DNA from: an uncultured Dehalococcoidia bacterium
Lineage (GTDB): Bacteria; Chloroflexota; Dehalococcoidia; Lucifugimonadales; UBA3495
Direction: 5' to 3'
Assembly: GCA_950072105.1 (NCBI GenBank)
Contig: CATMOE010000027.1
Coordinates: 1-48,226, forward strand
DNA: 48,226 bases
The notes under the pieces are model-generated. The model searched no databases. It was not told where the DNA came from and saw nothing but the letters and a program-made list of their open reading frames with translations. This document shows positions 76 to 43,148 of the stretch, one piece after another (position 1 is the stretch's first letter; the number at the start of each line of letters is the position of its first letter). Position numbers and translations under genes: made by a program.

Positions 76-831
76 ATGACCATTCGAGTAGGACACGTTT
101 CTTACCTTAACCATGAGCCTTTCTACATCGACATGGAGCGCCGGGGCCTACAGCTCCACAATGTCGTGCCCAGCGCCATAGCCGCCTCATTAGAGAACGG
201 CGAGATCGATGCCGGACCCATGCCCATATCCGATACTTTCCGGTTGGAAAGCATCTCCCAGCCGGTTGCGGGCTTTTGCTTGGCCGTTACCAACCGGTCT
301 GGCAGCAGCTTTCTGTTCTCCAAAGAACCCATCTCCCAACTGAACGGTGTCCCGATAGGAGTGGCGGCGGAGGCCGGCGCCTCTAGAGATCTTTTGCGCG
401 TAATCTTGGCGCTTAAGCATGATGTTCGGCCCGAAGCGTTTGTTAGCCTGGACGATTCCCCTCCGGCTTTTCTGCTCACCGGCAATCAAGCGCTGCGCCG
501 CCGCCGGGGACTGCGGGAATACCCCAATAAGTACGACCTGGGAGAAGAGTGGCACACCTGGACTGGACTGCCATTCGTTTTCGCGCGATGGATGCGGCGC
601 AACGACCTGTCTGAAAAGGACGCTGCCTTGTTGGAAGACACGCTTTACGTCGGCCTGGAAGACGGCGTGGATGGCTTGTATCATCTGTCCGAGCCCAGGG
701 AGAATCTGTTGATGCTGGCCAAAGACATTTTGGAATACATCCAGGGAGTACGCTACTTCATCGGTTTCTCGGAGCAAAAAGCGATCAACTTGTTTCGGAA
801 ATACTTGGAACAAGCCGGCGACTCAGTCTAA
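76..831 (+). CDS. mqnA: Chorismate dehydratase (futalosine menaquinone pathway, MqnA family)
   Basis: N-terminal RVGHVSYLNHEPF and the later YDLGEEWHTWTGLPFVFARW match the MqnA pattern; other futalosine-pathway genes lie at 30968-34752. Confidence 0.85.
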   Translation: MTIRVGHVSYLNHEPFYIDMERRGLQLHNVVPSAIAASLENGEIDAGPMPISDTFRLESISQPVAGFCLAVTNRSGSSFLFSKEPISQLNGVPIGVAAEAGASRDLLRVILALKHDVRPEAFVSLDDSPPAFLLTGNQALRRRRGLREYPNKYDLGEEWHTWTGLPFVFARWMRRNDLSEKDAALLEDTLYVGLEDGVDGLYHLSEPRENLLMLAKDILEYIQGVRYFIGFSEQKAINLFRKYLEQAGDSV

Positions 832-868
832 ATTCTCAGCTATCGATCCTCGGTCCGGAGATAAGAAT

Positions 869-1735
869 GTGGCGAAAGTAACCGACCGGTGCTTTGAAGC
901 TACCGGGCATTCCGCCTTCATCTGTGACTTCTCGCCGCCACGCACCGGAGACCCCCAGTCGTTCGCCCAGCCCAATCTGGACGCAAATTTTATCTCGGTG
1001 GCCTACAACCCCGGGAGAGCGGTGCGGGTAAATTCGGCGATGCTGGCGGCGGCCATTAAAGGCGAAACCAGGAAAGACGTGTTGTTCACCCTGGCCACGC
1101 GGGATATGAACAAACTGGCACTGGAATCTCTGTTGCTGGGCGGGCAGATACTGGGACTGGATAACGTGGTGGTGGTGCAAGGCGACCCGTTTACCCAGCG
1201 AGATTTGGACCGAGTCAAGGACGTGAGCGACTTTACACCCACGCAGATGATTTCCGCCATCGCGGCAATGAACCTGGGGACCGATTACCGGGAGGGGCAA
1301 TTAAGGTCTCCAACCGACTATTGCGTAGGCGCGACCTTGGATCTGGGCCGAGGCATCGAAGCTGAGGCCCAACTGGCGCACCGCAAAGTCCAGGCCGGAG
1401 CCCATTTTTTTATCAGCCAGCCTATCTTCGATGTTGACGAAGCGTCTCTCTTCCGGGAGGCATTCAAGGCGGCAGCCGGACACGATCTGGAGTTGCCGGT
1501 TTTCTTCGGCTTACAGGTTTTGGAACAGGACGGCATCATCTTTAGCTCAGTGCCGGAGACGGTAAGGCAAGAGCTGGAACAAGGCCGCCCTGGAGTAGAG
1601 ATAGCGTTAGAGCTATTCCACCGTTTTCAACAAGCCGGCCTCCACAACATCTACCTCGTGCCGCCCATCCGCCGGGGAGGCGCCCGGGGCTACGGTGCGG
1701 CACGGGAGGTGCTGGCGGCAGTCGAGCGACTGTAA
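869..1735 (+). CDS. Methylenetetrahydrofolate reductase (MetF)-family flavoprotein, divergent
   Basis: DFSPP, LATRDMN, VVVQGDP and KVQAGAHFFISQPIFD resemble MTHFR motifs; GTG start. Confidence 0.75.
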   Translation: MAKVTDRCFEATGHSAFICDFSPPRTGDPQSFAQPNLDANFISVAYNPGRAVRVNSAMLAAAIKGETRKDVLFTLATRDMNKLALESLLLGGQILGLDNVVVVQGDPFTQRDLDRVKDVSDFTPTQMISAIAAMNLGTDYREGQLRSPTDYCVGATLDLGRGIEAEAQLAHRKVQAGAHFFISQPIFDVDEASLFREAFKAAAGHDLELPVFFGLQVLEQDGIIFSSVPETVRQELEQGRPGVEIALELFHRFQQAGLHNIYLVPPIRRGGARGYGAAREVLAAVERL

Positions 1736-1802
1736 AGGTTTATCTCTAGTAATCAACCGACGGACTCCAAGCCGTCGCTCGCCACGAACGGGGCGTCTCG
1801 AA

Positions 1803-3473
1803 CTAGGGCCGCCAAGCTGGGGGCGCTATTCCTTCGATGTCGGATACCACATCTATCACCGCCGGCTTGCCCGATGCGATGGCCTGCTCCAAAGCGCTTT
1901 GGATCTGTCCCGGCTGGTCCACCCGGATGCCGAAACAGCCGATCGCTTGGGCCAATTTTGCCAGGTCCACGTCCAGCATGTGCCACAATTCCTCAGGGTT
2001 GCCGGGCTGTCCGGCGTAAAGCCGGTCGTTGCTCCGCTTTTCTTGATTCAACGAGTGGTTGTTGTTGACCACGATGACGGCGTTGATGCCGTACCGTAGC
2101 GCCGTTTCCAACTCGGACATGTGATACCAGAACCCGCCGTCGCCGGTGAAGCAGATCACCGGGCGGTCGGGGAGGGCGCATTTGGCGCCCAAAGCCCCGG
2201 GAAAACCCCAGCCCAGGGAGCCGGCGCAGCGGATGTATTGCTGGGTCTGCTCTTTCAGGTCGATCATGGTTCCCGTCCAGATGCCCGAGTGGCCGGTATC
2301 TGAAACCAACACGGCGTCGGAAGGCAGGTAGTCGGTCAGCTCTTTGCACAGACGTTCCGGGCGGATCGGTGAACCGTCGGAGTTGGACACCTCTGACACT
2401 CCTTCCCGCCACTCCGCCACCAGTTCCTGCGCCCGGTTCACCCACTCGGTCCGTGGCCCCAGAGGCTCTAGGACCTCCATAAGACGGCGAAGACATGCCT
2501 TGGCGTCGCCTTGCAGGGTGGCTTTGGCTGGATAGGACCGTCCCAGCTCGGAAGGATCGATATCTATCTGGATGACTGGGGTATCCAACGACGGGACTGT
2601 CCACTCGTTGGTCACTTGACTGCCGGTGTGACTGCCGATGTACAGAACCAAGTCTGCCTCGGAGACCAACCGGTTGGCGCAAGTCCGGGAATAGGAACCA
2701 CAGACCCCTACTGACAGCGGATGGCCGTCGGGTATCGCCGTTTTGGCGTTGAGAGATGTGGCAACGGGGATGGACATCATCTCGGCAAGTTGCACCACCT
2801 CTTGCTGGGCCCCTGAGGCAGTTACGCCTCCGCCCGCGACGATCACTGGGCGTTGTGCCGCCGAGAGAACCTGGGCCGCGGCCCGCACCATTGCGGCTTC
2901 CGGCTCCGGACGGTATGCCGGGACACGGGTGAAGTTCTCTTCGATGATTACTTCAAGATCGGCCTCTCCTTCCATAACAATGTTTCCCGAAGTTCCCTCC
3001 AGGTCGAGATGAACCGGTCCGGGCGCCCCCGACGTGGCTTCTCGTAGCGCTTGGCGGAGTAGGAAGGGTAGCTGCTCTGCAGAGTCCACCGGCACGCTGT
3101 ACTTGGTGACGGCGCTGAAGGGTCTAAGGTGGTCTACTTCCTGGTAAGAGTTACGGTGCTGGCTCAACCTAGGCTTGCGTCCGGTTATGGCTAAGACGGG
3201 AGACCCGGCCAAGAATGGGTCCTGCAATCCCGCCGCCAGGTTGGCGGCTCCTACGTTCTGCGCCGCACAAACTCCCGGCTTGTGAGACGCTCTGGCGTAG
3301 CCGTCAGCCATGTAGGCGGCGGCTTTCTCGCCGTGGGTCAAGATGCGTTTTATGCCTAGTTTTTCCATCTCCAGCATGGCGCGTTGAATGATTACCGGCA
3401 CGAAAAATACATGGGTGACGCCATACCCGTGCAAGGTTTCGGCCATGAAACGGCCCCCGGTCATCATAGGCAT
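1803..3473 (-). CDS. Thiamine-diphosphate-dependent enzyme (acetolactate synthase-like family)
   Basis: HGEKAAAYMADGYAR, PGPVHLDL and the ThDP-binding motif GDGG...NN; 556 aa. Confidence 0.9.
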   Translation of the reverse strand: MPMMTGGRFMAETLHGYGVTHVFFVPVIIQRAMLEMEKLGIKRILTHGEKAAAYMADGYARASHKPGVCAAQNVGAANLAAGLQDPFLAGSPVLAITGRKPRLSQHRNSYQEVDHLRPFSAVTKYSVPVDSAEQLPFLLRQALREATSGAPGPVHLDLEGTSGNIVMEGEADLEVIIEENFTRVPAYRPEPEAAMVRAAAQVLSAAQRPVIVAGGGVTASGAQQEVVQLAEMMSIPVATSLNAKTAIPDGHPLSVGVCGSYSRTCANRLVSEADLVLYIGSHTGSQVTNEWTVPSLDTPVIQIDIDPSELGRSYPAKATLQGDAKACLRRLMEVLEPLGPRTEWVNRAQELVAEWREGVSEVSNSDGSPIRPERLCKELTDYLPSDAVLVSDTGHSGIWTGTMIDLKEQTQQYIRCAGSLGWGFPGALGAKCALPDRPVICFTGDGGFWYHMSELETALRYGINAVIVVNNNHSLNQEKRSNDRLYAGQPGNPEELWHMLDVDLAKLAQAIGCFGIRVDQPGQIQSALEQAIASGKPAVIDVVSDIEGIAPPAWRP

Positions 3474-7525: not shown

Positions 7526-8311
7526 CTATCCCAGAAGCCGGGCCGCCACCACAACCCCCCATCCAACCAAAAGCAGACCCGTCGCTTTACTGAGACGCTG
7601 GCCCGCCGGGACTACTTTCTCTAAAAGCACGAATGCGGCCAGGGCGGCGATCCACAGCAGATTCATTACCCCTAGGACGAACAGCAACCCCATCAACACC
7701 CAGCAGCACCCCACGCAGTAGGTCCCGTGTTTCAGACCCATTCTAAGAGCGCTTTGGACACCCTCTTGCCAGTCGCTCATCAAGAAAGAAAGTGGAGACC
7801 GGCAGTGGGTAAGACAGACATATTTAAAGCGGCTCCATTGAAACAAACCCGCCGCTATTAGTAGGCCGCCTCCCAGATAAGCGCTGGTGCTTTCGCCCAT
7901 CATGGACGACAGCAAGGAATTAACGTGCAATGCCCAATTGCCCACGGTAGCCGCGACGGCAAACCCACCCCAGATCACTAGGTATCCCGACAGGAAAACC
8001 ACCGTGGGCACGTAAGGTCCCTGCTGTTCCCGCCGGCGGCGGTTAACCGTGGCGAACAGGAGGATCATGGGGGCGGCGGTGGGCACCATCATCCCAATCA
8101 TCATGACCCACCACATCAGGAACATGAACCCGAAATCGGCAGCGGTCCAGGATTGGAGTTGGGCCATAGCCATGCCCGAACTCATACCGCTCGTGGACTG
8201 GGCCAGGTAGATCACGTAGCCCCAGGCCAAGGCAGTCACCCCGGCCACGCCAACCACCACCACGGCCCGGTCGCGTTTCAGAATTGTTTCAATGGGTGTA
8301 GAGGGTTGCAT
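7526..8311 (-). CDS. DUF2182-family Met/Cys-rich integral membrane protein
   Basis: WWVMMIGMMVP, KYVCLTHCRSP and YCVGCCWVLM; adjacent to DUF1326 gene. Confidence 0.85.
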   Translation of the reverse strand: MQPSTPIETILKRDRAVVVVGVAGVTALAWGYVIYLAQSTSGMSSGMAMAQLQSWTAADFGFMFLMWWVMMIGMMVPTAAPMILLFATVNRRRREQQGPYVPTVVFLSGYLVIWGGFAVAATVGNWALHVNSLLSSMMGESTSAYLGGGLLIAAGLFQWSRFKYVCLTHCRSPLSFLMSDWQEGVQSALRMGLKHGTYCVGCCWVLMGLLFVLGVMNLLWIAALAAFVLLEKVVPAGQRLSKATGLLLVGWGVVVAARLLG

Positions 8312-8411
8312 CTGGAGGTTGGCTCGCGTTTCGGCTGGCGTTCTAAAGGGAAGAGGCCGTACCCGAGCACGGCCCCCTCAAATATACGCTTTGTTCGCTC
8401 TGCCGGAAAAT

Positions 8412-9035
8412 CTATTGGTTGGTCCACTCGATTGGGGCGAAGAAGGCGCTCTGGCCGGTATAGTCGAATTTAATATCTCCATGATCGACCTTCATTACCG
8501 AGGTCGTAGCGGTGTCCCCGTCATCCCAGATCAGCCCGCCGCCGGGGAAAACTATATGGACCTCATTCTCTTCGCCGGTAACCGGATTGATCAGCGGAGT
8601 AAGCTTGGCCTCCAAGATCCCATCGATGCTGAATCCGCTGTTGCGGCCGTTCACGTCCATCTTGATGGACTTTAGGTGAGGGCCGTCCAGCGAAGTGAGC
8701 GTGGTAGCCAGCAACTCCCAAGGCATCCCTCCGGCCTGTCCGGTGAGGATCGTTGCTATGCCGTTCACCTGGTCCTGACTGGCCGATTCATCGATGAAAA
8801 TAGCGGCAGCCCCGTTGCCTTCATGAATCGCCTTTGGCCACTTGATAGCCGGTACAACCTTCATGCCAGACAGGTCTACGTCACCAAACGTCCCTTCGCT
8901 TACATGGATCCCGATGAGGGCTTCACATGATCCGTGGTCCGGAAAACCTCCGAAGTTGCAATTGCACCCGGCATCGCAGTTACAGGTCTCCAGGAATACC
9001 CCTTTTACCCGATAGGGTGTTTGTGTTTGTACCAT
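8412..9035 (-). CDS. DUF1326-family protein
   Basis: ETCNCDAGCNC, GSCE and WPKAIHEGNG; usual partner of DUF2182. Confidence 0.85.
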   Translation of the reverse strand: MVQTQTPYRVKGVFLETCNCDAGCNCNFGGFPDHGSCEALIGIHVSEGTFGDVDLSGMKVVPAIKWPKAIHEGNGAAAIFIDESASQDQVNGIATILTGQAGGMPWELLATTLTSLDGPHLKSIKMDVNGRNSGFSIDGILEAKLTPLINPVTGEENEVHIVFPGGGLIWDDGDTATTSVMKVDHGDIKFDYTGQSAFFAPIEWTNQ

Positions 9036-10734: not shown

Positions 10735-11610
10735 TTGGATTGGATTGATTTTGCAACACCGAAAACTATTAGTGAGGCCGTCGAACTGCTGGCCTCAAAA
10801 GGGGACCGCGCCAGGCTGATCGCCGGTGGTACCGACTTACTCGTGCAACTTAGGGGCGGACGCCGCAGCGTTGACCTGGTTGTAGATGCCAAACAGATCC
10901 CGGAACTGAACGAGATGTCTTACTCTCCGCAAAACGGCTTGGTTATTGGGGCCGCGGTGCCCTGCTATCGTATCTATGCGGATAACGCCATAGCCGAGGC
11001 CTATCCTGGATTGATCGACGCAGCGAGTCTGATCGGAGGTATCCAGATTCAAGGCAGGGCCAGCTTGGGCGGCAACCTGTGTAACGCAGCGCCCAGCGGC
11101 GACTCCATACCGCCAATCATAGCGTTGGGCGGGGTAGCCCACATCGCCGGATCAAATGGATCCCGGCAGGTGGCGGCAGAAGACTTCTGTACCGGACCCG
11201 GCCGGAATATATTGCAAGACGGCGAGATGTTGGTGTCCATCAATTTCCCGGCGCCTGTAGCCCATTCCGGGGCCAGTTATCTCAGGTTCATTCCCCGTAA
11301 CGAGATGGATATCGCGGTTGCGGGAGTAGGTACCTCAATAGTGCTGGACGAGTCGGGCCAAAATTTCGTCTCGGCCCGCATATCTCTGGCATCAGTGGCT
11401 CCTATACCGGTCTTTGCCAAGGAAGCCGGCGACAGTCTGGCAGGTAAACCCGTATCGGAGGCAACCATTCAACAGGCCTCGGAAAAGGCCATCGCCGCCG
11501 CTACACCCATCAGCGACATGCGCGGGACGATCAGACAGCGGAATCACCTGGTGGGCGTGTTGACCCGCCGAACGCTTAACATTGCCGTAGAACGAGCCAG
11601 AGGGGGATAA
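10735..11610 (+). CDS. Xanthine dehydrogenase family FAD-binding (medium) subunit
   Basis: AGGTDL and ASLGGNLCNAAPSGD motifs. Confidence 0.92.
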   Translation: MDWIDFATPKTISEAVELLASKGDRARLIAGGTDLLVQLRGGRRSVDLVVDAKQIPELNEMSYSPQNGLVIGAAVPCYRIYADNAIAEAYPGLIDAASLIGGIQIQGRASLGGNLCNAAPSGDSIPPIIALGGVAHIAGSNGSRQVAAEDFCTGPGRNILQDGEMLVSINFPAPVAHSGASYLRFIPRNEMDIAVAGVGTSIVLDESGQNFVSARISLASVAPIPVFAKEAGDSLAGKPVSEATIQQASEKAIAAATPISDMRGTIRQRNHLVGVLTRRTLNIAVERARGG

Positions 11611-11612
11611 AA

Positions 11613-12086
11613 ATGCCCGGACCTACCCACGTACAAGCAACCATTAACGGTGAAGAGGTAAATTTCCTTTGCGAGCCGCGCCAAAGCCTGTTGGAGGTCC
11701 TCCGCGACGTGCTGGGCATGACCGGCACCAAGGAAGGATGTAATGACGGCAACTGTGGTGCGTGCACCGTGCTTTTCGACGGTCGCATCGTCGACTCTTG
11801 CCTCGTGCTAGGTGTAGAGATCCAAGGCCGGGAAGTAACCACCATCGAGGGACTGGCCACTGCCGACGGACTTCATCCGATACAGCAGGCGTTCCTGGAA
11901 AATGCCGCCCTCCAATGCGGCATCTGCACTCCTGGTTTCATCGTGGCCTCCAAGGGCCTTTTGGACGAGGAGCCCGGCGCCGACGAAGGCCGGATCCGCC
12001 ATTGGCTGGCGGGAAATCTCTGCCGATGCACTGGGTATGACAAGATCGTGCGAGCGGTATTGGATGCCGGCGAAAAGATGAAGTAA
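11613..12086 (+). CDS. Xanthine dehydrogenase family 2x[2Fe-2S] (small) subunit
   Basis: GCNDGNCGAC...C and QCGICTPG...NLCRCTGY motifs. Confidence 0.95.
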   Translation: MPGPTHVQATINGEEVNFLCEPRQSLLEVLRDVLGMTGTKEGCNDGNCGACTVLFDGRIVDSCLVLGVEIQGREVTTIEGLATADGLHPIQQAFLENAALQCGICTPGFIVASKGLLDEEPGADEGRIRHWLAGNLCRCTGYDKIVRAVLDAGEKMK

Positions 12087-12098
12087 GGCGGTGGACCA

Positions 12099-14390
12099 TT
12101 GGTCGCCAACATAGTTCTGTCCGAAGTTGAGTATACCCACATCGGTAAGAGGCCAATTCGACCCGACGGGGTGGACAAAGTCATCGGACGGGCCCAGTAC
12201 GGACCGGACATCACGCTGAAGGGGCTGTTGCATGGAAAAGTTCTGCGCAGCCCCTATGCTCATGCCCGGATAAAATCCATCGACACCAGTGAAGCCGAAG
12301 ACTATCCCGGCGTCAGGGCTATTATCACCGCCCAAGACCTGCCCTTCGCTTCCCTAAGTAAAGAGGAATTGGGCGCCGGTTATCAGGCTTTGAAGTTCGC
12401 CAGCGACCACGTACTGGCCGGCGGCAAAGTCCTGTTTAAAGGCCATCCGGTGGCCGCCGTGGCGGCCGCCAACCCTCATGTGGCCGAGGAAGCGGCCAAG
12501 CTTATAAAAGTGGAATATGAGGAGTTGCCGCCGGTCATGTCTGTCGTTGAGGCGATGGCCGATGGGGCCACGTTGCTCCATGACGATCTGTACACCTCCT
12601 CCTTAGGGGAAATCTCCCAAACCGCTAGCAACGTGGCAGCCCACGCCCGATACGAAAAAGGGGACGTGGCGCAAGGCTTCGACGAAGCCACCGTTGTTGT
12701 GGAGCGCGAATTCCAGACCGCTTCAGTTCACCAGGGTTACATCGAACCCCATAACGGCACTGCCTTATGGAGCGCCGACGGCCAATTGGACGTGTGGTGC
12801 AGCACTCAGGGGGCGTTCACGGTACGGTCCAGTATGGCCAATGTGTTGCGGCATCCCGTGTCCAAGATTAAAGTTACGCCCATGGAGATGGGGGGCGGCT
12901 TTGGCGGCAAGATATCCATCTATTTGGAGCCTCTCGCCGCCCTGTTGTCCAAGAAGAGCGGACAACCGGTAAAGCTGGTCATGAACAGGGTCGAGGTGTT
13001 CGAGGCTTCAGGCCCCGCCGCCGGCTCGTGGATCAAGGTGAAGATGGGTGCCACCAAAGACGGCAAGCTCACCGCCTGCCAGGCCGAACTGGCCTTAGAC
13101 GCCGGCGCCTATCCCGGTTCACCGGCCATGTCGGCCGCCATGTGCGCTTTCGCTTGCTACGATTATCCAAACGGCTTGCTGGACGCCTACGACGTTGTGG
13201 TGAACAAACCCAAAACGCAGGCGTACCGAGCTCCGGGATCTCCTCAGGCAGCCTACGCTGTCGAGTCGGTAGTGGACGAACTTTGCGAGAAACTAGGGAT
13301 AGACCCGTTTGAATTCCGGCTGAGGAACGCATCTAAAGAGGGTACTCGGCGGATAGAAGGTCCGGTCTACCGGCGTATAGGGCTGGTCGAGTGTTTGGAA
13401 GCCGCCCGCAGCCACGACCATTATCAAACGCCCGTCGACGTCCAACCCAGTGGTAAGCTGAGGGGACGGGGTGTGGCCTCCGGCTTCTGGTTCAACCGTG
13501 GATTCGTATCCAGTTGCAACCTTACGCTCAATCCCGATGGCACTGTCAGCGTGGTTATGGGGTCCGTTGACCTTTGCGGCACCAGGGCATCCATTGCTCA
13601 GCAGACCGCTGAGGCGTTGGGCATCGCTTACGAAGACATCAAACCATCGATAGCCGACACCGACTCCATCGGCTACACGTTCATAACCGGAGGGAGCCGG
13701 ACTACCTTCGCCACCGGTTTGGCAACCATCAACGCCTCACAAGATATTAAACAACGAATGATCGAGCGGGCTGCGGCCATCTGGGAAGCGAAAGTGGAGG
13801 ACGTGGAGTATGTTGACGCCGTACTGCAACACAAGTCCGACTCGGAATTGAGGATGACTTTTAAAGAGTTGGCCGGGCGAACGTTGACCACCGGCGGCTC
13901 TATTACCGCTCAGTGCAACATCGACCCGCCCGGGGAAGGAAACTCCTTCGCGGTCCACATCGTGGACGTGGAAGTGGACCGGGACACGGGCAAGGTGGAC
14001 ATACTGCGCTACACGGCGATTCAGGATTGCGGGAAAGCAGTGCATCCCAGCTACGTGGAAGGGCAGATGCAGGGAGGCGCGGCACAGGGCATCGGATGGG
14101 CCTTGAACGAAGAATACTTCTTTAACGGCCAGGGTCAGATGACCAATTCCAGCTTCCTGGATTACCGCATGCCCATCAGCCTTGACCTGCCCATGATCGA
14201 CACCGTGATCGTGGAGGTGGCCAATCCCGGCCATCCTTATGGGGTCCGCGGCGTTGGCGAGACACCCATAGTCCCGCCCTTGGCGGCGATCGCCAACGCG
14301 ATTTACCAGGCCACCGGTGTGCGGATGCAAAGCTTGCCCATAACCCCAGGCAAAGTGCTCGACGCATTGTGGAGCCAAAACGGGAGCTAA
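12099..14390 (+). CDS. Xanthine dehydrogenase family molybdopterin-binding (large) subunit
   Basis: GGGFGGK, AYRAPG, GQMQGGAAQGIG and RGVGE motifs; TTG start. Confidence 0.93.
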   Translation: MVANIVLSEVEYTHIGKRPIRPDGVDKVIGRAQYGPDITLKGLLHGKVLRSPYAHARIKSIDTSEAEDYPGVRAIITAQDLPFASLSKEELGAGYQALKFASDHVLAGGKVLFKGHPVAAVAAANPHVAEEAAKLIKVEYEELPPVMSVVEAMADGATLLHDDLYTSSLGEISQTASNVAAHARYEKGDVAQGFDEATVVVEREFQTASVHQGYIEPHNGTALWSADGQLDVWCSTQGAFTVRSSMANVLRHPVSKIKVTPMEMGGGFGGKISIYLEPLAALLSKKSGQPVKLVMNRVEVFEASGPAAGSWIKVKMGATKDGKLTACQAELALDAGAYPGSPAMSAAMCAFACYDYPNGLLDAYDVVVNKPKTQAYRAPGSPQAAYAVESVVDELCEKLGIDPFEFRLRNASKEGTRRIEGPVYRRIGLVECLEAARSHDHYQTPVDVQPSGKLRGRGVASGFWFNRGFVSSCNLTLNPDGTVSVVMGSVDLCGTRASIAQQTAEALGIAYEDIKPSIADTDSIGYTFITGGSRTTFATGLATINASQDIKQRMIERAAAIWEAKVEDVEYVDAVLQHKSDSELRMTFKELAGRTLTTGGSITAQCNIDPPGEGNSFAVHIVDVEVDRDTGKVDILRYTAIQDCGKAVHPSYVEGQMQGGAAQGIGWALNEEYFFNGQGQMTNSSFLDYRMPISLDLPMIDTVIVEVANPGHPYGVRGVGETPIVPPLAAIANAIYQATGVRMQSLPITPGKVLDALWSQNGS

Positions 14391-35017: not shown

Positions 35018-35329
35018 TCACAAGCCGGAAGGCTCGGCGCTCATTTTACTGAAGCAGTCACTGCAGTAAACGGGGCGGTCACCCGTCGGCCGGAATGGGA
35101 CCATGGCATCGTTACCGCACTCGGCGCAGTTAATCGGATACATCTCTCGAGGCGTCTCTTGGTACGTGCCGCCGCCCCTTTGCTCGGTCCGGCGGACCGC
35201 ACGGCAACTCCGGCACCGCTTTGGCTCGTTGGCAAAACCTCGTGAGTTGAAGAACTCCTGCTCGCCGGCGGTAAATATGAATTCCGCACCGCATTCCACA
35301 CACACTAAGGTTTTGTCCGACAGCGCCAC
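35018..35329 (-). CDS. Zinc-ribbon domain protein (two CxxC...CxxC modules)
   Basis: CVEC...PKRCRSC and CAEC...PVYCSDC; AGGAGG RBS and GTG start. Confidence 0.9.
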   Translation of the reverse strand: MALSDKTLVCVECGAEFIFTAGEQEFFNSRGFANEPKRCRSCRAVRRTEQRGGGTYQETPREMYPINCAECGNDAMVPFRPTGDRPVYCSDCFSKMSAEPSGL

Positions 35330-35447: not shown

Positions 35448-35475
35448 ATTATACTGACTGTTTGCTGGATTTCAA
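35448..35475 (-). promoter_or_regulatory. Sigma70-type promoter for the zinc-ribbon gene
   Basis: Minus strand TTGAAA-16 nt-TATAAT. Confidence 0.55.
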
Positions 35476-35788: not shown

Positions 35789-36916
35789 CTACGCCGAGGG
35801 AGACGTCATTTCTTCCTGCACCAGGAAGCACGAAGACGCCTTGAACACCGCCCATATGTTTTGGCCAGGTCTTATGCCCATCTCGGACATGGCCGCTCCG
35901 GTGACCTGTGTCTTTAAGGGGATCCCACAATCAAGAGTAACCTCGTACCCCGGAGGTCGAGGGTCCACGGTGGTTACTGTGCCCGGGAGCCGGTTCCGTG
36001 CCGACGTTCCCCTTGGCTCTTCACTTGCCAGGATGATGTCGGAAGAACGTATCCCAACCGTGATGTTTTCTCTTTGCCGCGGCCCATCGCTTTGATCGGA
36101 TGGGGCGGCGTCCAATGGAACTTCAAGTTTTACACCGCCGCCGATGCAGATCATCGTGCCGTCCTGCGGGTTGCGGCTCTCGACCGTCATCGTCAACAGA
36201 TTTTCCACCCCTGCTAATCTGGCGACTCGACCGCGGCCGGGTTGCCCCAACACCTGGAGGGGCTCGCCCTGGTCCACGATCCTTCCGCCGTCGATAACCT
36301 GGACGGAATCACCAAGGGCCAGGGCCTCTTCCCGGTCGTGGGTTACCAGCATTACTGGGATGGGCGAGTCAACGAGCATGGCGCGGAGCTCCCGCCGTAA
36401 TTCTCGGCGTAACTCGTTGTCCAGGGAAGCGAAAGGCTCATCCAACAGCAGGAGTTGGGGGGTAGTGGCCAAGGCCCGGGCCAGTGCGACGCGCTGCTGC
36501 TGTCCACCGGATAGCTGCCAGGTATAGCGGTCTTCCAAGCCTTCCAATCGCAACATTTTCGCCAATCGTTCGACTGTCCCACGTGCGTCCGGTTGCCGGC
36601 GGTCAGGCAACCCATAAGCGATGTTTCCCGCCACGTTCAAATGGGGAAACAAATGATATTGCTGGGTAAGGTAGCCAACCTGTCTCCGGTGTACCGGAAC
36701 CGATATGTGGCCGGCGCTGTCGTACACCACCCGGCCTCCCAACTCCACCCGGCCTTCCTCGGGGCGAACCAATCCAGCTATGCCCCTCAGGGTGGTGGTT
36801 TTACCCGCGCCGGACGGGCCGAAAAGAACCAGCACTTCCCCTTCTTCGATATGCCAATCGGCCTCCAAAGAGAATCCACCAACCCGGCATTTCAGCCAGC
36901 CTATGCTTACGGGCAT
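35789..36916 (-). CDS. modC: Molybdate/tungstate ABC transporter ATPase with C-terminal TOBE domain
   Basis: GPSGAGKT, LSGGQQQ, LLLDEPF, SARN and FKASS motifs. Confidence 0.88.
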   Translation of the reverse strand: MPVSIGWLKCRVGGFSLEADWHIEEGEVLVLFGPSGAGKTTTLRGIAGLVRPEEGRVELGGRVVYDSAGHISVPVHRRQVGYLTQQYHLFPHLNVAGNIAYGLPDRRQPDARGTVERLAKMLRLEGLEDRYTWQLSGGQQQRVALARALATTPQLLLLDEPFASLDNELRRELRRELRAMLVDSPIPVMLVTHDREEALALGDSVQVIDGGRIVDQGEPLQVLGQPGRGRVARLAGVENLLTMTVESRNPQDGTMICIGGGVKLEVPLDAAPSDQSDGPRQRENITVGIRSSDIILASEEPRGTSARNRLPGTVTTVDPRPPGYEVTLDCGIPLKTQVTGAAMSEMGIRPGQNIWAVFKASSCFLVQEEMTSPSA

Positions 36917-36934
36917 GGTGGTTTCCAGAGGGAT

Positions 36935-36972
36935 GGGGAAATCCCTCTAAATCCCCCTTTACGAAAGGGGGG
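36935..36972. repeat. Palindromic repeat, family A, in the modB-modC spacer
   Basis: GGGGAAATCCCTCTAAATCCCCCTTTACGAAAGGGGGG. Confidence 0.8.
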
Positions 36973-37007
36973 CTTGGTTGATGATTTGGCTGCTACGACT
37001 TGCATAG

Positions 37008-37841
37008 TCATAGGCGGTTTTGCCATTTGGGGCGGGTGGCCAGGCCTAGACCGATGAGTATCGTTACCGACCCGGCTAGCAATAGTACCGACAGGGCTAG
37101 GGCGGAATCCAGACTGGACTCCATGGCGGTCATGATCGCCAGGGGCATTGTTTGGGTTTTCCCCATGAGATTACCGGCAAACATGATGGTGGCGCCGAAC
37201 TCGGATAGAGAGCGCGCCCAAGCCAGGGCGAAGCCGGTCAGGAGAGAAGGGGCAGCCAAAGGCACGGTTAGCCTCCAGAACGTTCCCCAAGGCGATATCC
37301 CCAAGGTTTGAGAGATGTCCTCGTAATCGCGGGCCACCGATTGAAACCCCAATTTGGCCGACCGGATATAGAATGGGGCGGCCACGAATATCTGCGCGAA
37401 GACCACCGCCCCGGTGGTAAAAGGCAGACTAATGCCCAATGTCTCTAAAACGGGCCCCAAAACGCCCTGACGTCCGAAAGCCATCAGCATCGCGACGCCG
37501 GCCACGACCGGCGGCAAAACGATGGGAAGTTCAATGAGACTGTCCACTATCCTAAGTATCCAGGAGGTGTTGCGGGCCAGCAGATAGGCGAACGGCGTCC
37601 CCACCAGTAGGATGATACCCATGGAGATGCCGCTGGTGATCAAGGATAACCGTAATGCGGTCAACGCCAGGTCACTAACCAGACCAGTCAGGAAGTTTCC
37701 GTGCTGGGCCGCCCGGATCAGTAACGCCAGAACCGGCAAGCCGATGAACAGCAGGTAAATGACCGTGGCGGCAGGGCCGAATATCCCGGCTACCGGCAAT
37801 CCGGGAACTCTCCTCAGTCTAGCCAATCTTGCTCCCATCAT
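37008..37841 (-). CDS. modB: Molybdate ABC transporter permease
   Basis: LPIVLPPVVAG and ARSLSEFGATIMFAGN motifs; ATGA overlap with the modA stop. Confidence 0.92.
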   Translation of the reverse strand: MMGARLARLRRVPGLPVAGIFGPAATVIYLLFIGLPVLALLIRAAQHGNFLTGLVSDLALTALRLSLITSGISMGIILLVGTPFAYLLARNTSWILRIVDSLIELPIVLPPVVAGVAMLMAFGRQGVLGPVLETLGISLPFTTGAVVFAQIFVAAPFYIRSAKLGFQSVARDYEDISQTLGISPWGTFWRLTVPLAAPSLLTGFALAWARSLSEFGATIMFAGNLMGKTQTMPLAIMTAMESSLDSALALSVLLLAGSVTILIGLGLATRPKWQNRL

Positions 37842-38695
37842 CGCTGGTTCGAACCGGATGGGCTCTGGATCTGCGCTGGACGCTTGAAACCGTAGCTTTT
37901 CAAGATCGCCTGGGCTCGTTCTCCTAGAAGAAACCGGGCAAATTCCTTCGCCAGTCCGGGGTTAGCCGCGTCGCGTAGAACGGCGATGGGGTATTCGGCC
38001 GCTATGTTTGAACCCTGGGGTATGGACACCACCTGGACTTTTTCCGCCGCATATTCCGTCGCGGCGTCGGTGCGGTAGACGATACCAGCGTCAACTTCTC
38101 CCAAGGCGACTTTTTGGAGGACGCCTCGTACGTTGGGTTCAAGAGTGACTACATTGTCCATGACCCGCGAAGCATATCCGGGTCCCAGCGCTGGGTATTG
38201 GGTCTCCAGGTTTCGGAACAAGGTCAGAGCGTAGCGGCCTGCCGGAACATCTGGCAAGGCCAGGGCCAACTTAACGCCATCACTCGCCAAGTCTTCTAGT
38301 CTTTGTATGTTGACCGCGCTATTTAACCCTGCCAGCGTGCCAGGCAATGGCACAATAACTACCAGACTATTTCCGGCGAAGGGCGCCGGGTTCCCGGCGA
38401 TCAACCCCGCCTCCACCGCCAGGTCCATCTGGCGCCGGTCGGCGGACGCGAAGACGTCGGCCCTGGCGCCGAAATCCAACTGGGTGCGGAGCCTTTGAGA
38501 CCCGGCAAAGTTGAAAGTTACAGATGCGCCCGGGTGCTCTGCTACGAAAGCATCGGCAATCTCAGGGAAAGCGTTGAATAAAGACGCGGCGGCAAAGACC
38601 GTCAGTTCTCTTGAACCGTTTCCGGAAGCCGCATCGGGTTGATAGGCGCATGCTGCCGTGAGCAGCAGCGCCATAACAACGGGCAAGAGACTCAC
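37838..38695 (-). CDS. modA: Molybdate ABC transporter substrate-binding lipoprotein
   Basis: Lipobox TAAC; VFAAASL, FAGS, ADVFASA, VPAGRY and DAGIVYRTD motifs. Confidence 0.92.
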   Translation of the reverse strand: MSLLPVVMALLLTAACAYQPDAASGNGSRELTVFAAASLFNAFPEIADAFVAEHPGASVTFNFAGSQRLRTQLDFGARADVFASADRRQMDLAVEAGLIAGNPAPFAGNSLVVIVPLPGTLAGLNSAVNIQRLEDLASDGVKLALALPDVPAGRYALTLFRNLETQYPALGPGYASRVMDNVVTLEPNVRGVLQKVALGEVDAGIVYRTDAATEYAAEKVQVVSIPQGSNIAAEYPIAVLRDAANPGLAKEFARFLLGERAQAILKSYGFKRPAQIQSPSGSNQR

Positions 38696-39336
38696 AAAGA
38701 ACCGGAGGCCCGGCGGGAGATGTAGTCCGGGGCGCCCCGGACCCGAAATCTCTCCTCGCTGAAACGTTCTACCCAGTGGGCCAAGGGTTGCAGACTGTCA
38801 GAGAACTGGGGGTCGAATTCCCGCCAATTTCTTGCGTGCTCTTCCGAACGGAAGAGGTTCATGCCGGCTCAACGCCAAGGACGGGTCTCGGGTGCCCCTC
38901 CTACATCGGACCGGGTATAACCGACGATAGTATCCGGTGATGCCGATAGCACCTCACCGTCTCGCATCTCTACCGAGATCGCCTCACCGCAATCCAAACA
39001 TGGGCAATCGACACGTATAGTCTCTCCGGGAAACAGCCAGCAGACCGCCAGCGATTCGAACCCTCATTGGGCGAACCATTTCTGTTCGCCGCGCACGGTG
39101 ATCCGGTATTGATTGGGGAGGACATTGAACGGAGGAAATGACACCAGATAATCGGTATCCGGATGCAGCCAGGCCGGAATCCCAGTAGCGATCAGGTCGT
39201 GCAGTGTCTGGCGGCCTTCTTCCAAGGTAAGCCCCAAGTCGGCGGCAAGCTCCGTATAGTGCGGGGCCTGGCCGGTTTCCACCAGGCGCGTCATGATGTT
39301 GGAGAATGCTTTGTCCAGCAACGCCAGCTCTGCCAT
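38692..39336 (-). CDS. MerB (organomercurial lyase)-like protein, 214 aa, with two probable selenocysteines (U91, U156)
   Basis: Reading through UGA 39064-39066 and UGA 38869-38871 gives ...KWFAQ-U-GFESLAVCWLFPGETIRVDCPCLDCGEAISVEMRDG...PWR-U-AGMNLFRSEEHARNW...SGSL*. Length and spacing parallel MerB C96/D99/C159; the final stop overlaps the modA GTG; GGAGG RBS upstream. Confidence 0.85.
38839..38856 (-). promoter_or_regulatory. Candidate SECIS for the second UGA (U156) of the MerB-like gene
   Basis: CTCTTCC-GTTC-GGAAGAG: perfect 7-bp stem, loop begins with G, 12 nt after the UGA. Confidence 0.65.
39036..39052 (-). promoter_or_regulatory. Candidate SECIS for the first UGA (U91) of the MerB-like gene
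   Basis: GCTGGC-GGTCT-GCTGGC hairpin with G-U pairs, 11 nt after the UGA; the GGUCUGC apex resembles the E. coli fdhF SECIS. Confidence 0.6.
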
Positions 39337-39402
39337 GGGTATCCTCCCAGCGTGTTTATCTTGTTTTGACCAGGCTAGTATTGAGCATATTTAGACTAGA
39401 AC

Positions 39403-39460
39403 GATGGCAATTGTGATGGCAATTATAAAGTATACTTGCTAATACATCAAGTTAAGTGTA
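39403..39460. promoter_or_regulatory. AT-rich divergent control region with candidate operators
   Basis: Direct repeat GATGGCAATT at 39403 and 39415; inverted repeat ACTTG-N9-CAAGT. Confidence 0.45.
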
Positions 39461-39470
39461 CGGTATCCAA

Positions 39471-40610
39471 ATGGCGGCCTTACTTAACCAACTCAAACGA
39501 AACCGGCTTGAGGCCGGGCTTTCCCAGCAGGCGCTGGCCGGTTTGGCAGGAATCAGCCGTCAGGCGTACTCGGCGTTGGAATCGGGCAGCGCCAACCCGT
39601 CGACAGAGGTTGCCCTGCGTCTGGCCCGGTCCTTGAAAACCAGCGTCGACCACCTGTTTTCCTTGCCCGAAGCCGCTCCCCAACAGATGCTGGCCCAGTT
39701 AGTCGGCTCTTCGATCGCCAAAGACACCGCCTCCATCTACAAGCCAGCCACCAGAGTCCAACTGGTGCAGGTAGGTAACAGACTCTTGGCAAGGGCGGTA
39801 TCGGGGACTGGGAGCACCCGTCGATCCCTGATCCAAGCCGAAGGTGTCGCCGTCAATGAACCCGATGAAAGCAACCGGGTGACGGTCCAACCCTTCGAAG
39901 ACCATGAAACCCGGTCGCCAACCTTAGGCTTGCTGGGTTGCGACCCTGCCGGAGCGCTTCTGGAGCCGGGCTTGAATCGGCACGGCATCAACTTGGTATG
40001 GTGGGAGGAAGGGAGTCACCAGGCCTTGTCCGGATTGGCTCGAGGGGAAGCCCATGTGGCGGGTTGTCATCTTCGGGACGAGGACACAGGTGAGTTCAAT
40101 ATCCCCTGGGTCCTGAAGCTGATCCCTTTTCCCTGCACTATGGTCACTTTCGCGGCCTGGCAGCAAGGGTTCATCGTGGCGCCGGGCAACCCTCATGGAA
40201 TACGGAGCGTGGAAGACTTGTCCAGGCCGGAAGTTAGGATCATTAACCGTCAGTCTGGGTCGGGCAGCCGTTCCCTTTTGGACCGGTTATTGCTGCGGGG
40301 AGGAGTACCATCGGCCGCCGTCACCGGCTACAACCGGGAAGCCGGCGGCCATATGTCCGTGGCGTCTACCGTCGCTTCGGGACAAGCCGACGCCGGGGTG
40401 GGAGTGCAGGCCGCCGCCACCGCGCTGGGTTTGGGTTTTGTATCTCTGGAGGAGGAACGGTACGACTTGGTGATTCCCAACCACTTCCTGAACAACAGTG
40501 GTGTTCAGGTGCTGCTCGACCTGCTTCGTCAGCCCGGCCTTCGGCGCCGGGTGGAGACGCTGGGCGGCTATGACGTTTCAGCCATGGGCCTCCCGGTTTC
40601 TCACAGCTGA
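39471..40610 (+). CDS. XRE-type HTH regulator with C-terminal molybdate-binding PBP-like domain
   Basis: LSQQALAGLAGISRQAYSALESG HTH; GSHQAL, AHVAGCHL, NRQSGSGSR and EERYDL; divergent from the mod operon. Confidence 0.88.
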   Translation: MAALLNQLKRNRLEAGLSQQALAGLAGISRQAYSALESGSANPSTEVALRLARSLKTSVDHLFSLPEAAPQQMLAQLVGSSIAKDTASIYKPATRVQLVQVGNRLLARAVSGTGSTRRSLIQAEGVAVNEPDESNRVTVQPFEDHETRSPTLGLLGCDPAGALLEPGLNRHGINLVWWEEGSHQALSGLARGEAHVAGCHLRDEDTGEFNIPWVLKLIPFPCTMVTFAAWQQGFIVAPGNPHGIRSVEDLSRPEVRIINRQSGSGSRSLLDRLLLRGGVPSAAVTGYNREAGGHMSVASTVASGQADAGVGVQAAATALGLGFVSLEEERYDLVIPNHFLNNSGVQVLLDLLRQPGLRRRVETLGGYDVSAMGLPVSHS

Positions 40611-42017: not shown

Positions 42018-43148
42018 ATGACCCAGGGTTTTTCTGCCCAAAAAGGCGACGTGATGGTTCTGTTGGGCACCCGCAAGGGGGCCTTCATCTTGTCCAGCGA
42101 CAGATCGCGAAAAAACTGGCAAGTGTCCGGCCCCTACAGTCCGGGGAGTGAGGTATTTCACTTGACCTACGACGATCGGGAAGGTGGGACTGTGTTCGCG
42201 GCGGTCAACCAGATGATATGGGGACCGACAGTTCAACGCAGCCACGATCTGGGGACAACTTGGTTATCTCCCCAAGAGCCGCCCCGATTCACCAGCGGCG
42301 CCGCCGAAACCATAGACCAAGTTTGGCACCTGGCGCCGGGAAGAGATGGGGAACCGGGGGTTGTATATCTGGGAGTTGCCCCGGCCGGCTTGTTCAAAAG
42401 CGATGATTACGGGTCGACCTGGCAAGAGGTTGCCAGCCTGTCTAAGCATTCATCCCGGGACCAATGGCAGCCTGGATTGGGGGGCCTGTGCCTTCACAGC
42501 ATCGTCTTGGACCAGGCGGACGCCGGCCGGATGTGGGTTGGGATCTCGGCGGTAGGAGTATTCGGCACCACCGACTCTGGGGAGTCTTGGGAAACCCTGA
42601 ATCAGGGTGTGCGGGCCGACTTTCTACCCGACAGGTTTCCCGATTTCGGCCAATGCCCTCACAAAGTTTTGACCCACCCATCCAAACCTGGTTTGCTTTA
42701 TCAGCAGAACCACTGCGGGGTATACAGAAGCGATTCGGCTGGCGAAGAGTGGCAAGACATAACCGAGGGTTTGCCTTCCAGATTTGGGTTCGTTCTGGGA
42801 CTCCACTCCAAAGATCCGGATACCCTATTCGTGCTCCCGGAAGACGATGTGTTAGGGGAAGATGTAGGCGGCGGTAAGCGCTACGTGACAGATGCTAAGT
42901 TCCGCGTATACCGCAGCCGGAATGGGGGCCGGGACTGGGAGCCGTTAACACGGAGACTGCCCCAGCAGGGCGCCTACCTGCACGTTCTCCGGGAAGGCAT
43001 GGCCACCGATAGTCTGGACGATTGCGGCATCTACGTGGGCACCACGACCGGACAACTCTTCTACAGCCGGGACAACGGCGACAATTGGGAACTGATGATG
43101 GAGCATCTCCCGCCTATTTTGGCAGTGGAGTGTGGCGTTACGGTCTAA
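42018..43148 (+). CDS. BNR/Asp-box repeat beta-propeller (sialidase/Ycf48-like)
   Basis: LLGTRKG and repeated S-x-D-x-G-x-x-W Asp boxes; CLHSI and QQNHCG. Confidence 0.88.
   Translation: MTQGFSAQKGDVMVLLGTRKGAFILSSDRSRKNWQVSGPYSPGSEVFHLTYDDREGGTVFAAVNQMIWGPTVQRSHDLGTTWLSPQEPPRFTSGAAETIDQVWHLAPGRDGEPGVVYLGVAPAGLFKSDDYGSTWQEVASLSKHSSRDQWQPGLGGLCLHSIVLDQADAGRMWVGISAVGVFGTTDSGESWETLNQGVRADFLPDRFPDFGQCPHKVLTHPSKPGLLYQQNHCGVYRSDSAGEEWQDITEGLPSRFGFVLGLHSKDPDTLFVLPEDDVLGEDVGGGKRYVTDAKFRVYRSRNGGRDWEPLTRRLPQQGAYLHVLREGMATDSLDDCGIYVGTTTGQLFYSRDNGDNWELMMEHLPPILAVECGVTV

Follow-up and report, generated by a model that had tools for sequence, protein, structure and literature searches.

We analysed a stretch of 48,226 nucleotides of DNA (the window) from an uncultured Dehalococcoidia bacterium (contig CATMOE010000027.1 of assembly GCA_950072105.1), and in particular the region in which a gene for a MerB-like protein with two in-frame TGA codons precedes the genes modA, modB and modC and faces a divergently oriented regulator gene. 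The MerB-like gene is located at 38692..39336 on the minus strand. It starts with the ATG at 39336, is preceded by a Shine-Dalgarno sequence, GGGAGG, read from the sequence at 39343..39348 (minus strand), and would encode a protein of 214 residues with selenocysteine (Sec) at positions 91 and 156, glutamate at position 94 and TGA as stop codon. GGAGG-type sites are also present before the ATG in most of the printed intergenic regions of relatives; they are not evident in the loci of genus g23 and in locus L125. The two internal TGAs are located at 39066-39064 and 38871-38869, and translation of the window places the terminal TGA at 38694-38692. A preliminary description of this region had proposed that the MerB-like frame is read through two TGAs and ends in a 4-nucleotide (nt) GTGA overlap with modA, and both points are borne out by the coordinates and the translation: the frame is a single one, and its terminal TGA overlaps the GTG start codon of modA at 38692-38695.

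The product of this frame is a member of the MerB family as defined by Pfam (PF03243; E 4.2e-17, 62.7 bits against a gathering score of 27). The closest solved relative of its profile is MerB2 (5c17, E 9e-27). Profile alignment to 5c17 and 3f2g places the first UGA (39064..39066, minus strand; Sec91) in the column of MerB Cys96, and by profile alignment the second UGA (38869..38871, minus strand; Sec156) falls in the column of Cys159 and Glu94 in the column of Asp99. The aligned active-site columns therefore hold Sec, Glu and Sec where MerB has Cys96, Asp99 and Cys159; these residues are chemically analogous to, but are not, the defining ones. An AlphaFold2 model based on an alignment of 21 sequences had a mean pLDDT of 95.5, and all 11 PDB matches that Foldseek returned for it at E <= 0.001 were MerB or MerB2 (E 3e-10 to 4e-7; query TM 0.52-0.68). 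NosL, to whose fold that of MerB had been likened, was absent from these 11 matches, and the suggested kinship to this copper chaperone was hence not recovered. In summary, the protein resembles MerB and MerB2 (PF03243; PDB 3f0o and 5c17) in fold and in the alignment of the active-site columns, and it passes the Pfam threshold. It differs from them in having Sec/Glu/Sec instead of Cys/Asp/Cys, in an identity of only 15-20%, in scoring far under the NCBIfam cut-offs for MerB (NF009710, 33.7 bits versus 193; NF033555, 26.8 versus 200) and in not being part of a mer operon. In agreement with the earlier statement that the window lacks merA, merR and merTP, the families MerA, MerR, MerT and MerP were not among the Pfam matches of the 50 non-overlapping open reading frames (ORFs) of at least 90 aa of the window (E <= 1e-8 for 40 ORFs and <= 0.01 for 10). 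Neither was a MerA above the curated cut-off found in the genome, which is 92% complete (best match 387 bits versus 454).

Several lines of evidence indicate that the two TGAs specify Sec. The bacterial family to which the window belongs comprises 202 genomes, of which 16 contain the MerB-like gene (20 matches). Both TGAs are kept in all 20 matches, and at the level of loci TGA is present at both sites in 21/21, with the reading frame kept across 51-99% protein identity. Outside these loci, the second site is Cys in the homologues P0003, P0010, P0012 and P0204, two of which (P0003 and P0204) are true Cys/Cys homologues. The exact coincidence with the MerB Cys96 and Cys159 columns, the 20/20 conservation and the presence of Cys in the same columns of homologues strongly indicate that the two TGAs are not due to chance.

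In addition, each UGA is followed by a predicted hairpin with features of a selenocysteine insertion sequence (SECIS). SECIS-1 (39029..39063, minus strand) has, in the consensus fold of 21 sequences, a 7-bp core stem (39036-39052) with a GUC triloop, and SECIS-2 (38839..38856, minus strand) consists of CUCUUCC, the loop GUUC and GGAAGAG. The 7-bp stem of SECIS-1 and a triloop of the form GUN are found in 21 family loci, in which the loop-closing pair is CG, GU, AU or GC, both sides of it being changed in 14/21 sequences; this covariation arises from linked changes in an Ala codon and the Cys, Arg or Gly codon that follows it. Homologues with Cys at position 91 served as control. The SECIS-1 stem is fully paired (7/7) in 19/21 Sec91 loci versus 23/80 Cys91 homologues, and 32 of the latter have four pairs or fewer. 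SECIS-2 is nearly invariant, synonymous sites included, with 7/7 pairs in 67 of 80 loci and 6/7 pairs in 13; locus L081 carries a fully compensated variant. The bacterial SECIS of Escherichia coli fdhF is a hairpin that starts about 11-15 nt after the UGA and has G/U in its apical loop. The hairpins of the window are arranged likewise, the apex of SECIS-1 being GGUCU, and differ from it in that two separate elements are present in one short gene and that they match no Rfam family. Indeed, Rfam gave no family in the window at gathering thresholds and none in nine related loci at E <= 0.1, which speaks against a Moco riboswitch or a known SECIS model at this locus.

The genome contains selA, selB, selD and the gene for tRNA-Sec. 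Altogether, the evidence points to a functional gene for a cytoplasmic selenoprotein of the MerB fold, with Sec at positions 91 and 156 and Glu94 as the predicted proton-donating acid, in which each UGA would be recoded by its own downstream SECIS hairpin through the SelA/SelB/SelD/tRNA-Sec system of the genome. We regard the selenoprotein reading of the frame as nearly certain. The selD gene of this genome (G000; contig C60, 2148-3071) has itself one in-frame TGA, so that SelD would also be a selenoprotein here. The idea that the Sec trait is maintained for the sake of the MerB-like protein was rejected, since selA is present in 193/202 family genomes and the MerB-like gene in 16.

The genes downstream of the MerB-like gene probably encode the components of a molybdate or tungstate transporter, Mo and W being indistinguishable in this assignment. 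modA (37838..38695, minus strand), which has a GTG start codon, encodes a binding lipoprotein of the molybdate/tungstate type (TIGR01256, 147 bits versus 62.5) and is the single match in the whole genome. modB (37008..37841, minus strand) encodes the permease (TIGR02141, 193 bits versus 182.6; TIGR01581, 229 versus 210), and modC (35789..36916, minus strand) an ATPase with a C-terminal TOBE domain (ABC_tran 1.9e-34, TOBE 2.1e-11; TIGR02142, 263.6 bits, slightly below the cut-off of 285). The modA/modB overlap is ATGA, as described before, and modC comes next, 91 nt past modB.

The divergent gene (39456..40610, plus strand) encodes a regulator with an XRE-type helix-turn-helix (HTH) domain (Pfam HTH_3, 5.4e-14) and a PBP_like domain of the oxyanion-binding type (PF12727, 3.2e-63). 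Depending on whether it starts at the GTG at 39456 or at the alternative ATG at 39471, 119 or 134 nt separate it from the MerB-like gene; the latter distance agrees with the about 135 bp given earlier for an XRE-HTH/PBP regulator at this place. The C-terminal part of the protein matches the PBP part of the MoeA-PBP fusion PRK14498, and a fusion of the PF12727 domain to MoeA is also mentioned in PMC10102598. In 13 genomes an orthologue of the regulator gene faces modABC, and in one genome it faces a gene for a MOT1-type molybdate transporter; we infer that the regulator is a sensor of Mo/W oxyanions. Regulators that respond to Mo/W are known to be paired with modABC, as in ModE-modABC of E. coli, and TunR of Desulfovibrio is reportedly a Mo/W-responsive regulator combining an HTH with a PBP-like domain. 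The region studied here shares with these systems the divergent regulator, a palindromic operator over the transporter promoter and the PBP-like sensor domain; it differs in the XRE type of the HTH (HTH_3) and in the presence of a selenoprotein gene between operator and modA.

The putative operator is the palindrome CTTGAT-N5-ATCAAG (one mismatch; 39435..39451), which overlaps the -35 hexamer of a sigma-70-like promoter for the operon (TTGATG-17 nt-TATAAT; 39422..39450, minus strand; 10/12 consensus matches). By eye, the palindrome or its variant CTTGTCA..TGACAAG is present upstream of the first gene in the 12 linked loci (see below), in locus L120 and in genome G011. The strict palindrome (one mismatch at most) occurs once each in six of the 12 relatives' loci, making seven linked loci when the window is included; the remaining six, five of them linked loci and the sixth L120, lack it and carry the variant. 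Genome-wide it gave 11 matches versus about 4.6 expected, one of them in the window. In the relatives the -35 sequence is TTGAYG or TTGTCA, followed at 17 nt by TACAAT or TATAAT, with the same spacing throughout. Each linked locus has one operator/promoter, located upstream of the MerB-like gene, and no promoter-like site was detected on the coding strand inside this gene. The possibility, considered in the preliminary description, that modA has an independent promoter within 38700-39060 thus found no support, as nothing promoter-like is present there on the coding strand. modA of the window has no Shine-Dalgarno sequence, and the same is true in G011, where modA is the first gene. A weak terminator-like site just before the junction (38714-38701) was rejected, because 9 such sites were found versus 4.1 expected and because contigs from RNA libraries cross it.

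These contigs come from four marine RNA libraries (X1, X2, X3 and X6), each of which contains a contig that bridges the junction between the MerB-like gene and modA (X1 record 5, with 2 mismatches; X2 record 13, with 1 mismatch; X3 record 22; X6 record 29). X1 record 6 and X6 record 30 span both TGAs, and neither TGA is affected by the 40 differences that were listed (there are 134 more). Contigs end at 39387-39394, downstream of the predicted -10 sequence. Coverage has a gap at 39366-39456, although holes between contigs prove nothing. Contigs of other organisms, in all four libraries, match only the 38-base SECIS-2 stretch (38834-38871) and then diverge. Loose contig ends are accordingly located at 38834 and 38871, and the 91-base bin 38820-38910 has the greatest depth on the MerB-like gene. 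The sharing of this short stretch by foreign contigs indicates that many different homologues are present in those RNA libraries.

We then asked how far the linkage between the MerB-like gene and modABC extends. Sixteen of the family matches are primary orthologues (64-99% identity), and 12/16 show the arrangement regulator, divergent MerB-like gene, modA and modB. These belong to four genera, among which ModA is 48-55% identical, and modC was seen in the four linked loci that had been fetched with long flanks. Linkage in related genomes, the absence of which would have spoken against the preliminary description, is therefore present in 12/16 orthologue-bearing genomes of four genera. The wider gene order (PIG-L, Lin0512, ..., UbiD, UbiA) is common to several genera. 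In a tree obtained by a quick search only, with a weak backbone, the 12 linked rows are distributed over two adjacent groups, and the modABC linkage may have had one origin; row L129 of this tree carries two TGAs. The members of a paralogous MerB-like clade (51-54% identity) are unlinked.

The four genomes with an unlinked orthologue are the two of genus g14, G023 and G010. In g14 the two-Sec gene comes right after groES-groEL, in the same orientation, in both genomes (L116 of G015, 686-3413; L127 of G128), and in G128 selA is present about 2.5 kb further on the L127 contig. In G010 (L115; contig C74, 5834-7581) it follows, on the same strand, a gene for a sulfite-oxidase-type molybdoenzyme (Oxidored_molyb plus Mo-co_dimer). 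A Sortilin/BNR protein gene adjoins there, and the window has one too, at 42018-43148.

Two genomes show the unit without an intact MerB-like gene. G011 lacks a MerB-like gene although regulator, modABC and the same operator/promoter are all present there, in an unchanged wider gene order; this indicates that ModABC does not need the MerB-like protein. In G015 (L120; contig C183, 1747-3237) the orthologous regulator faces a gene for a MOT1-family (PF16983) molybdate transporter, and the N-terminal part of this ORF contains a relic (3051-3146) that shares 62% identity with MerB-like residues 182-213 and looks like the scar of a replacement. A gene for a treble-clef zinc-finger protein is located downstream in L120, as in the window. 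Together, G011 and G015 indicate that the stable unit consists of regulator, operator and molybdate transporter, and that the MerB-like gene is an accessory first cistron.

Beyond the bacterial family the linkage was absent. In none of 80 genome loci from other phyla did the available flanks (up to 7 kb) contain modA, modB or the regulator; nine of the 80 are flanked by unrelated ABC ATPases with 27-44% identity to ModC. In metagenomes modA was adjacent in 2/80 loci only (L187 and L204), both from same-genus relatives whose modA and regulator are 69-82% and 78-93% identical, respectively, to those of the window; among loci with at least 1 kb downstream, linkage was found in 1/27 Sec/Sec and 0/18 Cys/Sec cases. 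No Pfam family recurred among 116 flanking ORFs of 24 MerB-like loci, and a conserved neighbourhood outside the bacterial family was rejected on this ground. A molybdopterin oxidoreductase was present within about 2 kb in 2/24 of these wider loci. The neighbourhood comparison that had been called for thus gave a divided answer: linkage within one bacterial family (12/16), but none in other phyla (0/80) and, in metagenomes, only the two same-genus loci.

The MerB-like family itself is far wider. An exhaustive profile-free search yielded 551 relatives at E <= 0.001, many of which end at query residue 90 or 155, and public entries of 155 aa were found by a word-index search under the names 'organomercurial lyase' or 'hypothetical protein'. 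Six JGI entries described as 'full-length' (P0152, P0153, P0155, P0158, P0191 and P0208) show Trp in place of Sec91 and Sec156, evidently because TGA was taken for W by the gene caller on short contigs, and the clusters affected have up to 123 members. From a species-representative genome collection we studied the best 80 of 159 stretches encoding relatives. The search pattern demanded Cys at site 1, so that Cys in 80/80 of these loci is uninformative on its frequency; site 2 was TGA in 80/80. By record title these 80 loci belong to Acidimicrobiia/Actinomycetota, Chloroflexota, Rokubacteria/Methylomirabilota, Deltaproteobacteria, Nitrospinae and others. Metagenome contigs were scanned with the SECIS-2 motif alone, which is unbiased at site 1, and this gave 80 loci from at least 120 stretches. 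TGA was present at site 2 in 78/80, and site 1 was Sec in 35, Cys in 37 and ambiguous in 8. The two-Sec form is therefore common, and the family as a whole nearly always has Sec at the second site; in many phyla its gene stands alone, in surroundings that vary. In L042-L078 (Poriferisodalis/Acidimicrobiales, sponge-associated Actinomycetota) the protein has a conserved C-terminal extension of about 150 residues to which no family was assigned.

One MerB-like selenoprotein has been described before. SaoL of the SAO locus is presented as truncated in databases at a UGA, with its Sec aligned to MerB Cys159, and as having a CU dipeptide, a single Sec, a nine-gene SAO neighbourhood and an occurrence only in anaerobes (Haft & Gwadz, bioRxiv 10.1101/2022.07.06.499078). 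The protein studied here resembles SaoL (NF040728) in being MerB-like, truncated in databases at UGA and provided with Sec at the Cys159 position. It differs in that its site 2 is R-U-A/G without a neighbouring Cys (W-R-U-A-G in the window), in having a second Sec at the Cys96 position, and in its neighbourhoods, which are variable or modABC, not the SAO locus. On the SaoL model the window protein scored 34 bits versus a cut-off of 140, the match covering residues 60-137 only, which indicates a second, distinct family of MerB-like selenoproteins. Similarly, the SaoA model gave 141 bits versus 360 on ModC, the neighbours in the window being modABC and the HTH/PBP_like regulator. Literature searches combining selenoprotein or selenocysteine with MerB-like, alkylmercury lyase or organomercurial lyase gave no MerB-like selenoprotein besides SaoL, and the tables of selenoprotein families in reviews of 2022 and 2026, searched for MerB, alkylmercury and PF03243, held only SaoL, with one Sec. 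What is new is thus a widespread and mis-annotated MerB-like selenoprotein with two Sec residues, together with its lineage-specific capture by a Mo-regulated operon; a Se/Mo system is not demonstrated. In public databases, hundreds of members of this family stop short at residue 155 or 90 or have Trp in place of the UGA codons, and surveys of merB-like genes and of selenoproteomes consequently miss or misread it. Two Sec residues and a carboxylate on a MerB scaffold form a metal site that is not among the review-tabulated selenoprotein families, and the family occurs in marine and soil lineages and is not restricted to anaerobes.

Taken together, the results are best explained by assuming that a double-Sec MerB-like selenoprotein, with a functional role as suggested by homology, was recruited into a Mo-regulated operon in one lineage; we give this reading a probability of roughly 60%. 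The basic job of the protein would be independent of molybdenum. It would bind a soft (thiophilic) metal or an organometal at a site made of Se/Se (or S/Se) and a carboxylate, and the most likely reaction would be protonolysis of a carbon-metal bond, with the proton supplied by Glu94, in the manner of MerB. In one bacterial family the gene has been placed as first cistron between the conserved operator/promoter and modABC, a position that implies its transcription together with the transporter genes under control of the divergent HTH/PBP_like regulator. Such recruitment under a Mo/W-responsive regulator would not require that the protein takes part in transport, and any dependence of ModA synthesis on Se, through ribosomes halting at UGA, would be a side effect limited to the genus with the GTGA overlap. 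A functional link between Se and Mo is accordingly speculative. If the proposed carbon-metal cleavage is correct, the family would be of relevance for organomercury turnover in places where canonical merB is rare.

A number of observations weigh against this explanation. MerB chemistry is attributed to the protein by homology at 15-20% identity to solved MerB, and no MerA was found in the 92%-complete genome that would take over Hg(II). A very tight Hg-Se site might fail to turn over. The linkage has outlasted the divergence of ModA to about 50% identity, 12/16 is a high retention, and in the unlinked G010 the gene follows one for a sulfite-oxidase-type molybdoenzyme; these three points make some Mo-related role possible. 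On the other hand, the conserved wider gene order means that retention cannot separate selection from inheritance, in either direction. Finally, the RNA evidence consists of assembled contigs, for which carry-over of DNA is possible, and it shows presence and bridging, not a single transcript.

An alternative explanation is that the locus encodes a dedicated Se-Mo/W system, in which the diselenol/Glu site handles Mo/W or protects the cofactor and the protein is a working partner of ModABC. Examples would be binding of thio- or seleno-molybdate, discrimination between Mo and W after import, or shielding of the molybdopterin dithiolene from thiophilic metals. That the gene heads the single modA operon of the genome, behind a Mo-type operator, and that this arrangement is maintained in four genera while ModA fell to 48-55% identity, would be in line with such a partnership, and so would the relic of the MerB-like 3' end at the syntenic locus before the MOT1-type transporter of G015, the molybdoenzyme gene preceding the orthologue of G010 and the molybdopterin oxidoreductases near 2/24 wider loci. 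However, G011 has the complete regulator/operator/modABC unit without the MerB-like gene, the gene is present in only 16/202 family genomes, and linkage is absent in other phyla (0/80) and nearly so in metagenomes (1/27 Sec/Sec, 0/18 Cys/Sec). Moreover, the Cys/Cys/Asp site of MerB binds soft cations, not oxyanions, and among PDB entries the solved MerB complexes contain Hg, organotin and organolead. We therefore consider a dedicated system unlikely. Somewhat less likely still is a combined version, in which the diselenol protein is a working part of Mo/W acquisition that binds or passes on Mo/W or a thiophilic contaminant, while the family at large consists of organometal lyases (acting for instance on methylmercury) that operate without MerA. 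If it were true, use of Mo or W would depend on selenium via a protein other than formate dehydrogenase, and the family concerned is common in marine and soil metagenomes, hidden from annotation by truncation.

These considerations also bear on two proposals of the preliminary description. The proposed metal-handling role, linked to Mo/W rather than to mercury resistance, is supported in so far as the gene encodes a selenoprotein, has no mer context and is co-oriented with modABC, but the linkage is lineage-specific and the unit of G011 lacks the gene. Of the candidate new Se/Mo(W) system, what is borne out is a double-Sec selenoprotein in a Mo-type operon of one lineage, the working link between Se and Mo being speculative.

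A different alternative is that the selenoprotein gene acts as a selenium-gated leader, its UGAs sensing the capacity for Sec decoding: when Se is scarce, translation would stop early and ModA would fall through transcriptional polarity or loss of translational coupling. The GTGA stop/start overlap, the absence of a Shine-Dalgarno sequence before modA and the single promoter upstream of the Sec gene would fit this scheme, as would a strong hairpin over the modA start (38635-38680; -25 kcal/mol, z -3.7) that lies in the region encoding the ModA signal peptide and encloses the in-frame AUG, and that is kept in the near-identical G001 (z -3.55). However, the same-genus genome G002 lacks this hairpin (z +0.9), which was therefore not accepted as a conserved element and probably arises from its Leu/Ala codons. 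Only genus g1, that of the window, shows the overlap; the two genes are about 14 nt apart in g23 and separated by 70-155 nt in g3 and g27. The fact that modA of G011, a first gene, also lacks a Shine-Dalgarno sequence indicates that its initiation does not need coupling. Furthermore, Sec decoding in bacteria is of low efficiency, and two Sec codons in series would leave very few ribosomes for coupling. Nor is there an evident reason to tie import of Mo to Se, because none of the four PF00384 molybdopterin oxidoreductases of the genome has an in-frame stop and the 92%-complete genome gave no match to YqeB or YqeC; the assembly thus shows no Se-needing molybdoenzyme of these kinds. As modA is single-copy, polarity resulting from failed Sec decoding would matter, but nothing indicates designed control, and a selenium-gated leader appears very improbable. 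The suggestion that Mo/W import could depend on selenium supply through coupled translation of modA is consequently not upheld, given that only one genus has the overlap, that G002 lacks the hairpin and that no Se-needing molybdoenzyme is evident. With a Sec gene heading its single modABC operon, the genome nonetheless offers a natural test case for cross-talk between the supply of Se and the import of a second trace element.

Finally, it is hardly credible that the two TGAs terminate translation and that the locus is either a merB-like pseudogene in decay or a set of three small ORFs: public gene calls do end at residue 155 or 90, but the conservation of both TGAs and of the frame over 51-99% protein identity in 21/21 family loci, the SECIS covariation, the Cys residues of homologues in the same columns, the complete Sec machinery and a confidently modelled full-length fold that would need the C-terminal part all argue against it.

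With respect to molybdoenzymes, the window contains at 10735-14390 three genes for a Mo hydroxylase of the xanthine-dehydrogenase/CO-dehydrogenase type (FAD, 2Fe-2S and MoCo subunits). By Pfam this xanthine-dehydrogenase-type enzyme is an ordinary Mo hydroxylase, and the absence of in-frame stops from its genes indicates that the organism uses Mo in enzymes that have none. A selenium-dependent molybdenum hydroxylase trait was rejected, YqeB and YqeC not having been found in the 92%-complete genome. Close to the hydroxylase genes, at 7526-9035, are genes for a PpoB2 copper chaperone and a DUF1326 protein. Past the other end of the operon, at 35448-35475 (minus strand), lies the best promoter-like match of the region (TTGAAA-16 nt-TATAAT, 11/12). 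It is located upstream of the treble-clef zinc-finger gene (35018-35329), which is syntenic with the Mo-transport locus in G001, G011 and G015.

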